Assembly (NCBI RefSeq): GCF_050320075.1
Contig: NZ_CP190018.1
DNA: 64,000 nucleotides
Direction: 5' to 3' (one strand)
DNA from: Escherichia coli
GTDB lineage: Bacteria; Pseudomonadota; Gammaproteobacteria; Enterobacterales; Enterobacteriaceae
Below are positions 4,919 to 55,430 of this stretch, piece after piece. The position numbers and the translations under genes are program-made. The notes beneath the pieces were generated by a model that did not search any database, was not told the origin of the DNA, and saw only the letters and a program-made list of their open reading frames with translations. Numbering within the stretch: position 1 is the first letter of the stretch; each line of letters starts with the position of its first letter.

Positions 4919-5668
4919 ATGAATTCCCGACAACAAACAATTCTACAGATGGTCATTGACCAGGGTCAGGTTAGCGTAACCGATCTGGCAAAAGCCACTG
5001 GAGTTTCTGAAGTTACCATTCGCCAGGATCTCAACACCCTCGAAAAACTGAGTTACCTCCGCCGTGCACATGGCTTTGCAGTATCGCTTGATAGTGATGA
5101 CGTCGAAACTCGTATGATGAGCAACTATACGCTGAAGCGTGAACTCGCCGAGTTTGCCGCGTCACTGGTTCAACCGGGCGAAACCATCTTTATCGAAAAT
5201 GGCAGCAGCAATGCCCTGCTCGCCCGGACTCTGGGCGAGCAGAAGAAAAATGTCACTATCATCACGGTCAGCAGCTACATCGCGCATTTGCTGAAAGACG
5301 CGCCTTGTGAAGTTATTTTGCTCGGTGGCGTGTACCAGAAAAATAGCGAAAGTATGGTTGGTCCTTTGACACGCCAGTGCATCCAACAGGTGCATTTCAG
5401 CAAAGCATTTATTGGTATTGATGGCTGGCAACCTGAAACTGGGTTTACCGGTCGCGATATGATGCGTACCGATGTGGTCAATGCCGTGCTGGAAAAAGAG
5501 TGCGAAGCGATAGTCCTGACTGACAGCTCGAAATTTGGTGCTGTACATTCATACTCCATCGGCCCCGTTGAGCGATTCAATCGCGTGATTACCGATTCGA
5601 AAATACGCGCCAGCGATCTGATGCATCTTGAGCACAGTAAACTCACCGTTCACGTCGTTGACATTTAA
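4919..5668 (+). CDS. yciT: DeoR-family transcriptional regulator (DeoT), 249 aa
   Basis: 249 aa ORF with an N-terminal HTH ([21 protein letters not shown]) and a sugar-phosphate-binding DeoR C-terminal domain. Confidence 0.85.
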
Positions 5669-5936
5669 CCATTTCCCTTCTCTACGGATGATTTGCTGTT
5701 TTGCAAATCATCCGCTCTAAGATGATTCCTGGTTGATAATTAAGACTATTTACCTGTTATTAACACTCTCAAGATATAAAATTATTATCAGCGATATAAC
5801 AGGAAGTCATTATCACCTGCGTGATATAACCCTGCGCGCGAGCGGATTTCACGGAATAATTTCACCAGGCTTATTCTTAGCTATTATAGTTATAGTGAGC
5901 TTACTTCCGTGAATCATAAATTCAGGAGAGAGTATT

Positions 5937-6155
5937 ATGTTTGTAACGAGCAAAAAAATGACCGCGGCTGTTCTGGCAATTACCCTGGCAATGTCTCTGA
6001 GTGCCTGTTCTAACTGGTCTAAACGAGACCGTAACACCGCAATTGGCGCGGGTGCAGGTGCATTAGGCGGTGCAGTACTGACCGATGGCAGTACGCTGGG
6101 TACATTAGGTGGTGCTGCCGTCGGTGGTGTTATTGGTCACCAGGTCGGTAAATAA
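5937..6155 (+). CDS. osmB: Osmotically inducible lipoprotein B, 72 aa
   Basis: Lipoprotein signal peptide with lipobox LSAC, followed by a Gly-rich body (GAGAGALGGAV...); length 72 aa. Confidence 0.9.
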   Translation: MFVTSKKMTAAVLAITLAMSLSACSNWSKRDRNTAIGAGAGALGGAVLTDGSTLGTLGGAAVGGVIGHQVGK

Positions 6156-21496: not shown

Positions 21497-21502
21497 GTGA
21501 AA

Positions 21503-21536
21503 GCACCTCAAAAGAAGCCTCTTGAGGTGCTTTAAT
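21503..21536 (+). terminator. Hairpin terminator after btuR, immediately abutting the IS1 left end
   Basis: gcacctcaa aagaagcctc ttgaggtgc followed by ttt. Confidence 0.5.
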
Positions 21537-23234: not shown

Positions 23235-23444
23235 AGAGCTTCCTTTTGGTGTCGCCTTCCCAGGCGTCTGATATGCTTTTGTGCAACAGTGAGTCAGAAC
23301 TGACATCTGACTCACTGATAGTAAAGTCTGTTTGAACTCTTCAGGCCTTAAGTAAACGACTCGACGTTTATCGGCCTGGCTTTGAGGCGCAACATACTAC
23401 ACTATCTTTATGGTTAAAGCTTGTTTCGATTAACGTCGATTTGG

Positions 23445-25340
23445 TTACCAACCACCACCGCCTCCGCCACCCGCACCGCCGCCAGCACCACCACCGGAAT
23501 AGCTTCGCCCCAACAAACTGGTATAGGCCCCGCAACTCAGGTGCGTCTGCAATGAGAATAAAACGCCACTACGGGCAATTTCCGGGGCGCTAACAGCCGC
23601 TGTGAGTGATGGGGTGATACGTTCTGCCCATTCTCTACCAAGGTTTGCCGAGACCGCCCAACCTAACAACGCGTAATCCAGTTTCCGTGTTTCCCCTTTC
23701 CGCCGCCGCCCACTGTGTGTTGCCGCCTCTTTACGCGCAAGATAGTTAACGATAGCTTCACCGTGGGCATAACGTTGCTGCCCAGTTTGGGTAAACTTTG
23801 GCAGAAAAATATACCCCATGCCAGTGAGATAACCGGTCAGGACAACAGCGCTAAAATAACCCGCTGGCATATACCAGTAAAAGAATACATCTCCGACATT
23901 GATATAGAGAGAATAGAAGGCCACACCTGAACAAATCAGTGGTAAAAACAAAGTGATGATTACACGATTAACGCAAGGCTTGTCATCATCGCGGGCAAAC
24001 AAAAGCTCAAGGGAACAAAATAAAAAAGGAAGAAGCCAGCAGATCATAATAAACATATCGCCCACCAGACTCATTCCTGCCCAGCCTACGGGACTCAGGT
24101 TACCGTAGAGAATGACCGCCAATATTGCCATTCCGCCCCATTGCAAAAACGCATCAGGTCGGTAAAACGAAGACTTTTTACGCGGCAGATAAAATTTCTG
24201 CATCCGTAAAAATGCCCTGCGTAACACTCTGTTGCGTCTCCCCGTAAGAACGACCTTATCGCCTTTACGAAATAACGCTTCCAGTAATAACTGCTCTGCG
24301 GGCAGTAATACCGCATTATTTCTGGTCGCGCCTTCATTAACACGAATCAGGATTTGCTGGTTCTTGTCATACTGATCTTCCAGATGAATTTTGCCTTTCA
24401 CAATCAGATTTACGATATCGGCACAAAAACCTTTATCGTCGTAAACCAGCTTCGCATCGAGACGTAACATGCCGGGCGTGTAATCTGGCGGAATGACATC
24501 GGTTTCAATCACATCTACCGGCGTAAATTGCGGCCTGCGCTTCCAGAGATATAACCATCCACAAACCATGAGCAGACACGGAAACCAAATTAACAACGAT
24601 GACGTGGAGGGTAAAAGAAGATGGCTGAAAATATTCGTCGTTTGTAGAGCCGGGGCATTGCTAAGTAAAGCGTGAGGCCAGCGATAGAGGACCGTGAAGT
24701 CTTCACGATAAAACGGATCGCGGGATTCAATTCTTCCGTCCTCAAGGATGCGGCCATTTCGATATGTGTCGCCCTCTTCTCCGGTAAAGAGATCAATTTC
24801 GCTAAATGGATTACCCGCAATATTAGAGATCTGGAGAGAAAATCGGGTCTTATAAATTTCAAACGGCCACTTGTTACCGGTCACGTTCCAGATTAACAGA
24901 TCAGAATCTCCCTCACGCAGGAAAGCATTTTTAACCTGATAATGAATTTGATAATGATAGTCACCTTGAGGCAAGAAACGTTGTTTATCGCCCACGACAA
25001 TACTCATTAAACCGATATGCCAGTCAAGATGCCAGGGTTCAGGAACACCATCACGGGTGACGCCAACAATATGATAGTTCAGCAGTGCAGCGTCACCATC
25101 AGGCTGCATCCATAGTCGTGGTAAATCACGATAAAATCCGTGCTTAATCTGCTGATTTCGCGCCTGAAAATGAATGTTCTCTTTGATGTCGAGCACCCCA
25201 TCCAGTTGCAGGGTGGCTTCAACATCAAAGAGCGAGATCCCTTCTTCATAAGAAGGGATCTCCGTGTTTTCTGCATAACTTAGAGATGATACAAACAGCC
25301 CTGCTATCAACAGCAAAATGCAGCGAAACTTCCCTGCCAT
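23445..25340 (-). CDS. yciQ: DUF2207-family inner membrane protein YciQ, 631 aa, with a C-terminal poly-Gly tail
   Basis: 631 aa; signal/TM segment at the N-terminus, several TM helices in the C-terminal third, ends ...SYSGGGAGGGAGGGGGGGW. Confidence 0.8.
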   Translation of the reverse strand: MAGKFRCILLLIAGLFVSSLSYAENTEIPSYEEGISLFDVEATLQLDGVLDIKENIHFQARNQQIKHGFYRDLPRLWMQPDGDAALLNYHIVGVTRDGVPEPWHLDWHIGLMSIVVGDKQRFLPQGDYHYQIHYQVKNAFLREGDSDLLIWNVTGNKWPFEIYKTRFSLQISNIAGNPFSEIDLFTGEEGDTYRNGRILEDGRIESRDPFYREDFTVLYRWPHALLSNAPALQTTNIFSHLLLPSTSSLLIWFPCLLMVCGWLYLWKRRPQFTPVDVIETDVIPPDYTPGMLRLDAKLVYDDKGFCADIVNLIVKGKIHLEDQYDKNQQILIRVNEGATRNNAVLLPAEQLLLEALFRKGDKVVLTGRRNRVLRRAFLRMQKFYLPRKKSSFYRPDAFLQWGGMAILAVILYGNLSPVGWAGMSLVGDMFIMICWLLPFLFCSLELLFARDDDKPCVNRVIITLFLPLICSGVAFYSLYINVGDVFFYWYMPAGYFSAVVLTGYLTGMGYIFLPKFTQTGQQRYAHGEAIVNYLARKEAATHSGRRRKGETRKLDYALLGWAVSANLGREWAERITPSLTAAVSAPEIARSGVLFSLQTHLSCGAYTSLLGRSYSGGGAGGGAGGGGGGGW

Positions 25341-32864: not shown

Positions 32865-33670
32865 TGGAACGCTACGAATCTCTGTTTGCCCAGTTGAAGG
32901 AGCGCAAAGAAGGCGCATTCGTTCCTTTCGTCACGCTCGGTGATCCGGGCATTGAGCAGTCGCTGAAAATTATCGACACGCTAATTGAAGCCGGTGCTGA
33001 CGCGCTGGAGTTAGGTATCCCCTTCTCCGACCCACTGGCGGATGGCCCGACGATTCAAAACGCCACACTGCGTGCCTTTGCGGCAGGTGTGACCCCGGCA
33101 CAGTGCTTTGAGATGCTGGCACTGATTCGCCAGAAGCACCCGACCATTCCCATCGGCCTTTTGATGTATGCCAACCTGGTGTTTAACAAAGGCATTGATG
33201 AGTTTTATGCCCAGTGCGAGAAAGTCGGCGTCGATTCGGTGCTGGTTGCCGATGTGCCAGTGGAAGAGTCCGCGCCCTTCCGCCAGGCCGCGTTGCGTCA
33301 TAATGTCGCACCTATCTTTATTTGCCCGCCGAATGCCGACGATGATTTGCTGCGCCAGATAGCCTCCTACGGTCGTGGATACACCTATTTATTGTCACGT
33401 GCGGGCGTGACCGGCGCAGAAAACCGCGCCGCGTTACCCCTCAATCATCTAGTCACGAAGCTGAAAGAATACAATGCTGCGCCTCCATTGCAGGGCTTTG
33501 GTATTTCCGCCCCGGATCAGGTAAAAGCAGCGATTGATGCAGGAGTTGCGGGCGCGATTTCTGGTTCGGCCATCGTTAAAATCATCGAGCAACATATTAA
33601 TGAGCCAGAGAAAATGCTGGCGGCACTGAAAGCTTTTGTACAACCGATGAAAGCGGCGACGCGCAGCTAA
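32864..33670 (+). CDS. trpA: Tryptophan synthase alpha chain, 268 aa
   Basis: ORF trimmed to [22 protein letters not shown]; ATG overlaps the trpB TGA by 1 nt. Confidence 0.95.
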
Positions 33671-38238: not shown

Positions 38239-38277
38239 TAATCAAAAGCCTCCGGTCGGAGGCTTTTGACTTTATGC

Positions 38278-48905: not shown

Positions 48906-49642
48906 TGTTTTTTGGACTCCCTCATTATAATTACTGGTATTAACCAGCATGTGTAATCCCGGATTGGGACCCTGCACAGGCTCGGAGACTTTCTGCTGTC
49001 AGGTTACTTTATCGTTACGTATTACTATCACCGACTTTATTTATTCTGGTGATTCAGACGATCACCTTATGTCGATTCGTACTGTGTCTCCCCTGTCGAG
49101 ACACATTATTCTTTCGCGACGCTCTTTAATTGTTAATTATTCTCATTACCAATAAAGAATCGTCTGGCGGTTGCCCGGAAAGTACCAAATGCGGTTCTTA
49201 CTCGCCAATACATTTTGCAAAATTGTTAAGCAATTCTCTTTTATTGACCGTATCAGAATCTATAGCTTGCATCCATGTCTTAACAAACATCTTTTAATTC
49301 AATCAAATAGAGATTGGTTAAGCATGTCTCTCTTTTCTGATTACAGTTCCAGTAGTGAAATGCACAATAATTTAACAATTGATTATTATTTAGCACTTTC
49401 CTCTACCAAAGGCAGTGGAATTACTAATATCATTTCAATTATTCTTCAGCAAGCCCAGGATTATGATGTGGCGAAAATAACATGATGGTGAGGAGAAGCA
49501 GTTAAGGAAATCCTTATAACCAACTGTAATTTGAGAAGAATATTTTCACCCATTCCTTTTGCTTTTGATAACTGCGCGGGAACAAAGTAAAAATAATGAC
49601 GAAGTAAACGGAGCATGACAGCTCCGTTTCATTTGAAAGGAA

Positions 49643-50290
49643 TTAATTAAGCAGGCCGGGGAAAATCCCCTTAATACCAGTAACGATAAATTCAATCCCC
49701 AATGCCATCAGCAATAGCCCCATAATACGCGTGATCACGTTGATGCCGGTTTGGCGTAAAACCCGTACCAGCCACGGTGCCATGCGGAACAATCCCCAGC
49801 AACATAAAGCGAACAATGCAATAGCCACAAAGAAACCAAACAGATAGCTAATGCTGTGATAACGCGTACCCCAGACGATGGTAGAACTGATCGCCCCTGG
49901 CCCCGCCATCAACGGCAACGCCAGTGGCACCACACCAATGCTTTCACGTACCGCGGTTTCTGATTTTTCTTGCTTGTTCTGTTTATCCTCGCCAAGCTTG
50001 CCGCTGATCATCGACATCGCTATCGTCACCACCAGGATGCCCCCGGCGATACGGAACGAATCAATTGATATACCAAAAAGTTGCAGAATCGTGTCGCCGA
50101 GAAAAAGCGAGATCCACAAGATAATGGCCACAGACAGGTTGGCTGTAAGGTTAGTTTTGTTTCGCGCTGCCGCTGTCTGATAACTGGTCATGCTGATAAA
50201 GACGGGAATAATCCCTACCGGGTTGACCAGCGCAAATAACCCGATGAAAAATTTGAAGTAAACGGGAAAATCAAAAAGGGTCTGAATCAC
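49643..50290 (-). CDS. ychE: MarC-family inner membrane protein YchE, 215 aa
   Basis: 215 aa, six predicted TM helices. Confidence 0.8.
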   Translation of the reverse strand: MIQTLFDFPVYFKFFIGLFALVNPVGIIPVFISMTSYQTAAARNKTNLTANLSVAIILWISLFLGDTILQLFGISIDSFRIAGGILVVTIAMSMISGKLGEDKQNKQEKSETAVRESIGVVPLALPLMAGPGAISSTIVWGTRYHSISYLFGFFVAIALFALCCWGLFRMAPWLVRVLRQTGINVITRIMGLLLMALGIEFIVTGIKGIFPGLLN

Positions 50291-55402: not shown

Positions 55403-55430
55403 AAAAATCCCGCCATCGGCGGGATTTTTT
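55403..55430 (+). terminator. Rho-independent terminator after hns
   Basis: aaaaatcccgccatcggcgggatttttt. Confidence 0.7.

Follow-up and report, generated by a model that had tools for sequence, protein, structure and literature searches.

The perfect palindrome that follows the yciT gene at positions 5685-5714 of the Escherichia coli window (the whole 64,000-nt stretch of DNA analysed here) is in all probability the RNA 3'-end hairpin of the yciT mRNA. The established features are a stable stem, a precise and abundant 3' end in E. coli K-12 that lies 4 nt downstream of it, the lack of a U-tract, and conservation of the structure. The best overall explanation would be that the palindrome forms the protective 3' stem-loop of a factor-terminated yciT transcript, which we consider fairly likely; for the specific route of Rho termination followed by trimming, the balance is close to even and tips slightly in its favor. 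A role as an RNA 3'-end stabilizing stem-loop was one of two functions suggested in the original prediction, and it is supported by the K-12 Term-seq end 4 nt past the stem and by the retention of the hairpin while its sequence changes. The features referred to below are the following.

4919..5668, plus strand: yciT coding sequence, DeoR-family regulator of 249 aa (ORF list; annotation in matching E. coli genomes)
5669..5684, plus strand: spacer from stop codon to stem, 16 nt, CCATTTCCCTTCTCTA, with 7 C, 7 T, 2 A and 0 G, i.e. pyrimidine-rich and free of G
5685..5714, plus strand: the hairpin, located in the 3' UTR of the yciT transcript (ORF list)
5685..5696, plus strand: 5' arm of the stem, CGGATGATTTGC, with a core, GATGATTTGC, that hardly varies among Escherichia, Salmonella and Citrobacter
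5697..5702, plus strand: loop, TGTTTT (AGTTTG in K-12), the columns of which show a mean pairwise identity of only 39%
5703..5714, plus strand: 3' arm of the stem, GCAAATCATCCG (sequence, repeat finder and folding)
5718, plus strand: equivalent of the K-12 Term-seq primary yciT 3' end (PMC7815308 Supplementary file 1, coordinate converted)
5718..5731, plus strand: RcsB-box-like sequence TAAGATGATTCCTG of the osmB upstream promoter, a neighbor of the hairpin and not part of it
5900, plus strand: equivalent of the K-12 'Rho termination region' 1343365(-) (PMC7815308 Supplementary file 2)
5937..6155, plus strand: osmB coding sequence, the next gene downstream, in the orientation of yciT (ORF list; matching E. 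coli annotation)

The two 12-nt arms are 100% complementary as judged by sequence reading and a repeat finder, and they enclose a loop of 6 nt. The yciT ORF ends at 5668 and the first base of the stem is the 17th nucleotide past the stop codon; the osmB start codon at 5937 is found 223 nt downstream of the stem, where about 220 bp had been predicted. The tails beyond the stem, CTCTAAGAT on the plus strand and TAGAGAAGG on the minus strand, show a T-run on neither strand, again as originally described. The gene names given there are likewise correct: the 401-nt region around the hairpin is 100% identical to that of E. coli strain 7/2 and is found in 5422 of 5426 complete E. coli genomes, once in the median genome, and the names yciT and osmB match the annotation of E. 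coli chromosomes that are 100% identical in this region.

RNA folding of the stem yields -18.8 kcal/mol on the plus strand and -18.2 kcal/mol on the minus strand, with z-scores of -7.3 and -8.3, respectively, relative to shuffled sequences, none of which folded equally well. Only 6 of the 12 base pairs are G-C, so that the stem is A/U-rich. Within the 64-kb window, there are 6 distinct inverted repeats in which arms of at least 12 bp match perfectly and the loop is 3-10 nt long, compared with a mean of 0.025 expected from 40 first-order Markov simulations; the palindrome is thus far from a chance occurrence, yet not unique in the window. The five further repeats, with arms of 12-13 bp, are located at 21500-21533, 23287-23317, 25234-25262, 38242-38269 and 55403-55429. 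Those at 21500, 38242 and 55403 are flanked by A-runs and T-runs and resemble bidirectional terminators. A T-run is absent from the repeats at 23287 (CAGTGAGTCAGA...) and 25234 (GAGATCCCTTCTT...). The 10-mer of the arms occurs exactly four times in the window, once in each arm and once each at 33341 and 50685, where it stands isolated and is not paired into a hairpin.

The original prediction that this is not a typical intrinsic terminator holds. Only 2 T are found among the first 8 bases of the tail, resulting in a T-tract weight (in which the T residues of the tail are counted with weights) of 0.89 as compared with 3.2-4.3 in real terminators, and a consensus terminator scan did not call the hairpin. 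Upstream of the stem, in CCATTTCCCTTCTCTA, there is no A-tract. An Rfam covariance-model scan with a threshold of E <= 1 returned nothing at the hairpin.

The end of the yciT transcript is known from published Term-seq data on E. coli K-12 MG1655, in which the 'primary' yciT 3' end is NC_000913.3 1343547(-) (Adams et al. 2021, eLife, PMC7815308). This end occurs in 2 of the 3 growth-condition sheets, with 107065 and 37489 reads (PMC7815308 Supplementary file 1), and is printed there in the context ACCATTTCCCTTCTCTACGGATGATTTGCAGTTTGGCAAATCATCCGCTCTAAGATGATTC, with the end marked as ...CGGATGATTTGCAGTTTGGCAAATCATCCGCTCT^AAG. We read the 3' end as position 51 of the 61-mers, a convention calibrated on sgrS, the annotated end of which is the last U of its tract. 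With yciT at 1343597-1344346 in K-12 coordinates, the stem occupies 1343580-1343551, and the mapped 3' end is the T four nucleotides past the last G of the stem, corresponding to window position 5718, which is also the first base of the RcsB-like box. Between the present hairpin and that of K-12 there are two differences, both at loop positions, and we infer that the yciT transcript of the present strain ends at 5718, as Term-seq shows for K-12. The original prediction had named transcript 3' ends at the stem as the mark of a plain processing or termination hairpin, and this is where the K-12 data place them. The TERMITe supplements contain no entry for yciT.

The hairpin is a general feature of this locus. 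We scanned one genome per species and obtained 80 Enterobacteriaceae loci with YciT proteins 74-99% identical, 79 of which were long enough for evaluation. In all 79, osmB is found downstream of yciT on the same strand, and in 78 of them the interval from the yciT stop codon to the RcsB-like box holds a stem-loop that folds at -9 kcal/mol or below. These hairpins start at a median of 9 nt past the stop codon and end at a median of 13 nt before the box. Their energies have a median of -14.9 kcal/mol, as opposed to -5.2 kcal/mol for dinucleotide shuffles of the same segments; 98.7% of the loci but only 16.7% of the shuffles reach -9 kcal/mol, and 72 of the 79 loci score better than all 10 of their own shuffles. 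The stems themselves, however, fall into about ten sequence families that are unrelated across genera: GATGATTTGC in Escherichia, Salmonella and Citrobacter, GCGCCCG in Enterobacter and Lelliottia, AGCCCGC in Kosakonia and Phytobacter, ACCCGATGC in Kluyvera, and several others in the remaining genera. The sequence of the spacer corresponding to 5669..5684 is not kept between genera either. Conservation in the Enterobacteriaceae, proposed originally as a check, is seen for the hairpin and not for the sequence of its stem. Position and stability are kept and the sequence is free to change, a pattern typical of an RNA structural element rather than of a DNA site for a conserved protein.

Three loci or groups of loci depart from the common arrangement or origin. 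Entomohabitans teleogrylli (L077) is the sole ortholog without a hairpin, and its RcsB-like box begins 12 nt past the stop codon. In Raoultella (L078-L079), the hairpin lies 37-45 nt past the stop codon, as compared with about 9 nt elsewhere. The locus L001 (JAEWQO010000093.1) is titled 'MAG: Actinomycetes bacterium' but has a YciT 99% identical to that of E. coli and a hairpin of the K-12 form; this is almost certainly E. coli sequence that entered the assembly through contamination or mis-binning.

The Escherichia/Salmonella/Citrobacter clade, in which the 30-nt hairpins align without gaps, allows pairing to be counted in a fixed register. In this register, 91.3% of the cells are paired, a share that falls to 27-47% once the partner is shifted. 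At pair 5-32, A-U and G-C are each found in 9 sequences, a full compensatory switch, and pair 15-22 is C-G in 16, U-G in 6 and U-A in 1, a series that is the classical route via a wobble intermediate. Among the ten core pairs, the departures from Watson-Crick pairing on the plus strand are 12 G.U as against 1 A.C, and the independent events in the clade are about 7-8 G.U as against 2 A.C. A G.U pair on the plus strand would be an A.C mismatch on the minus strand or in a duplex read by a protein, and an RNA in the yciT sense is therefore favored. This strand evidence rests on the fixed-register G.U counts of the one clade. A family-wide folding advantage of the plus strand (41 versus 24 loci, p=0.013, with 40 G.U versus 11) was rejected as biased because the hairpins had been picked on that strand; when hairpins were optimized independently on both strands, no family-wide strand effect was found (p=0.25, 40 G.U versus 39). 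On the minus strand, pyrF-yciH transcription stops at a terminator at 6275-6250, and therefore no minus-strand transcript would be expected at the palindrome.

Within the same clade, the 10-bp core GATGATTTGC/GCAAATCATC (5686-5695 and 5704-5713; loci L001-L022) is 94.5% identical, as compared with 39% identity in the loop and 40% in the 5' flank. Judging from this alignment, the core sequence is conserved beyond the needs of pairing. It might have been selected for its sequence and not for pairing alone, in a dual-purpose element that combines an RNA 3'-end hairpin with a specific protein site. A protein site of this kind may reside on the RNA (e.g. for a 3'-end-binding protein such as ProQ), or it may be a DNA site that assists the neighboring RcsB box in tuning osmBp1. 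As an alternative, the element could act as a U-tract-less terminator that insulates osmBp1. We consider these readings improbable.

The region into which yciT transcription would continue is the promoter region of osmB, so that the hairpin is wedged between the yciT stop codon and the upstream osmB promoter. Two osmB promoters, P1 and P2, were reportedly mapped by Boulanger et al. 2005. A promoter scan identified promoter-like hexamers at 5760-5788 and 5861-5890, the latter comprising TTCACC (-35) at 5861 and an osmBp2-like -10 element, TATAGT, at 5885-5890. The RcsB-like box TAAGATGATTCCTG begins 3 nt past the stem and matches the pattern TN(G/A)GAN4TC(T/C)NA save for the last base; the motif is present in 77 of the 79 orthologous loci. 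In Salmonella, the osmB RcsB box TAAGACTTTTCTGA has been validated by EMSA and is located 215 nt before the ATG (PMC7913699), and TAAGATGATTCCTG (5718-5731) occupies the equivalent position relative to the osmB ATG. The exact start of osmBp1 is a prediction based only on the promoter scan together with the findings in Salmonella. A second RcsB-box-like sequence, ACCAGGCTTATTCTTAG, occurs in inverted orientation at 5864-5880 and is 76% complementary to the box at 5717-5733; it overlaps the -35 element of the osmBp2-like promoter and could be a second RcsB site. The region upstream of osmB also contains a pair of 24-nt direct repeats with 71% identity, 50 nt apart (5756-5779 and 5806-5829), as well as two copies of GATATAAC, 30 nt apart (5793-5800 and 5823-5830). 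A link between stem and RcsB box, both of which share GATGATT in E. coli, was considered and rejected: in Citrobacter and Salmonella the stem is retained next to another box, and in Enterobacter the box is retained next to another stem.

As to how the 3' end arises, we propose that transcription of yciT continues beyond the stop codon and that a stem of 12 bp then forms. Without a U-tract, the stem alone would probably be poor at releasing RNA polymerase, which would then enter the untranslated, AT-rich DNA of the osmB promoter, where it would be released, most likely by Rho or else by another non-intrinsic route, over the following 50-200 nt. Two 3'-to-5' exonucleases, PNPase and RNase II, would subsequently trim the tail back to the stem, and the stem would block them, thereby stabilizing the yciT mRNA and setting its steady-state end 4 nt past the stem. 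As a side effect, yciT transcripts would be kept separate from osmB expression. Such a combination is known: Dar and Sorek 2018 found that Rho-dependent transcripts end just past stable stem-loops without U-rich tails, which shield them against PNPase and RNase II (PMC6061677).

Published bicyclomycin data bear on the involvement of Rho. In that experiment, a Rho termination region was assigned to 1343365(-) (Rho score 3.63, p = 9.7e-9; PMC7815308 Supplementary file 2); it maps to window position 5900, on the same strand and 182 nt downstream of the yciT 3' end. The upstream/downstream reads were 101/25 in untreated cells and 259/233 with bicyclomycin (PMC7815308), so that the downstream/upstream ratio rose from 0.25 to 0.90. 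These data are compatible with Rho ending yciT transcripts past the stem and suggest Rho dependence. Their meaning is ambiguous, however, because position 5900 adjoins the osmBp2-like -10 element (5885-5890) and because the 3'-end reads in the upstream 800-nt window did not fall but rose with bicyclomycin, from 101 to 259; bicyclomycin-induced osmB transcription is an equally good reading of them. As to base composition, the spacer ahead of the stem, which lacks G and is rich in C and U, favors the involvement of Rho. Past the stem, C and G number 14 and 10 in the 86 nt at 5715-5800, and 35 and 32 in the 186 nt at 5715-5900, and a rut-like composition downstream of the stem was dropped as support, the excess of C being marginal.

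Instead of Rho, the stem-loop itself could stop the polymerase, as a U-poor intrinsic terminator that is perhaps aided by NusA or NusG and acts before the RcsB box and the osmB promoter are reached. We regard this as possible, although it is clearly the less probable course of events. It would readily account for a 3' end 4 nt past a stem of -18.8 kcal/mol, for hairpin-proximal 3' ends that do not fall under bicyclomycin, and for a hairpin placed just upstream of the RcsB box, at a median gap of 13 nt, in nearly all genera. Furthermore, in Leclercia and in Cedecea-like Enterobacter (L039, L067-L069), a T-run follows an unrelated stem at the same position, and these orthologs resemble canonical terminators. 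A T-rich tail (at least 5 T in 8 nt) is nevertheless absent from 73 of the 79 loci, and its presence in the other six is also a caveat to the Rho route, since it means that a self-sufficient terminator can fill this slot. Release in E. coli, on the other hand, normally needs a U-tract, as is established knowledge (Dar and Sorek, PMC6061677), and the E. coli hairpin has 2 T in 8 tail positions, a T-tract weight of 0.89 and a negative terminator scan; the change in downstream/upstream reads from 0.25 to 0.90 with bicyclomycin also speaks against intrinsic release.

A further way to produce the same end would be endonucleolytic cleavage of a yciT-osmB read-through RNA followed by trimming, which would make the fragment a decay intermediate or a functional 3'-UTR small RNA. 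The 107065 Term-seq reads are indeed high for a modestly expressed gene (RNA-seq baseMean 358), and the conservation of the 10-bp core past pairing needs would suit a functional RNA. Against this, the tail offers no U-run for Hfq, no Rfam family is found at the hairpin, and the stem sequence is not kept outside three genera; a literature search for work linking yciT to Hfq, ProQ or RIL-seq found no paper. We therefore give this origin little credence.

The remaining proposal, and the second of the two functions originally suggested, is that the palindrome is a DNA operator, bound by a dimeric regulator (YciT, or a factor cooperating with RcsB) that controls osmBp1. The attraction of this idea lies in the perfect 12-bp symmetry of a site located 3 nt before an RcsB box, in a core that is invariant in Escherichia, Salmonella and Citrobacter, and in the increase of osmB by log2 +1.83 in a yciT deletion. 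In the same study, the osmB transcript also rises by log2 +2.73 in the deletion of another, unrelated regulator, however, and the increase in the yciT deletion may be a polar, scar or nonspecific effect or part of the general stress response. To our knowledge, the half-sites show no convincing match to the operators of PurR, CytR, Cra or DeoR.

The binding sites of YciT itself are known from ChIP-exo in glucose M9, which yielded 49 peaks (Gao et al. 2021, NAR, PMC8464067 Dataset S4). None of the 49 lies in the yciT-osmB spacer, the nearest being upstream of pdeR at NC_000913.2 1344894-1344924, or about 2366-2396 in the window. From eight of the strongest K-12 peaks and the pdeR site, we built a motif; TTCATTTGAAA is common to the rdcA, yjiT, yjjI and pdeR peaks and occurs as a variant in yfcV, and the inferred motif TTTCAnnTGAAA is the palindrome TTTCA-nn-TGAAA. 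It predicts both published peaks in the window. The first match, at 2375-2386 (TTTCGTTTGAAA, one mismatch), is the published peak upstream of pdeR. The second, at 49627-49638 (TTTCATTTGAAA, perfect), is located just past the stop codon of a ychE-like ORF of 215 aa on the minus strand (49643-50290) and fits published peak 16, which was assigned to oppA and was not used in building the motif. In contrast, TTTCAnnTGAAA has no match in 5600-5950 even with up to 2 mismatches. In addition, unrelated stems occur in genera where YciT is about 80% identical and the RcsB box is conserved, and departures from symmetry are of the G.U type and not random. The operator proposal is consequently very improbable, and for YciT in particular the absence of a ChIP-exo peak and of the motif, together with the unrelated stems, speaks against it.

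Taking the palindrome as the 3'-end hairpin of the yciT mRNA locates the end of the yciT transcript and explains how that end can be precise without a U-tract; beyond annotation, this matters little. Because yciT transcripts end right at the RcsB box of osmB, engineering or deleting yciT can disturb osmB expression. For genome scans, the case carries the caution that, among perfect palindromes beside regulator genes, RNA 3'-end hairpins are commoner than operators, and that the two can be told apart quickly by turnover of sequence at a kept position, departures of the G.U type and published 3'-end maps.

Comparison with known systems leads to the same assignment. With the operators of YciT and the DeoR family, the palindrome shares dyad symmetry and its location beside a DeoR-family gene, but its half-site and spacing are unlike TTTCA-nn-TGAAA and no ChIP-exo peak coincides with it. 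Like REP elements, it is an extragenic palindrome able to block 3' exonucleases; unlike them, it is single-copy (its region being present once in the median of 5422 E. coli genomes), is not GC-rich and lacks the REP consensus, so that it does not fit the description of a REP element. In common with intrinsic terminators, it is a stem-loop right after a gene with a 3' end near the base of the stem, and a few genera have a true stem-plus-T-run at the orthologous position. It differs from them in its tail CUCUAAGAU, which has no U-tract, in the negative terminator scan and in its A/U-rich stem: compared with a G+C-rich terminator stem of 5-14 bp, that of yciT has 12 bp and a 6-nt loop, with 6 of 12 pairs being G-C.

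The closest resemblance is to the class described by Dar and Sorek. Three differences set the yciT locus apart from that class: the downstream excess of C over G is marginal here; the downstream DNA is the promoter region of the next gene; and Rho dependence and exonuclease trimming, part of the description of the class, are for yciT proposed by analogy. In other respects the two agree. The yciT element is a stable stem-loop with terminator-like stem and loop dimensions, located in the UTR past the stop codon, without a U-rich tail or an upstream A-tract, and followed within a few nucleotides by a precise 3' end. In its structure and, on the K-12 literature, in its 3' end, the yciT hairpin has the properties of this class; with its 3' end already in a published table and the class well described, it is an ordinary element of its kind.
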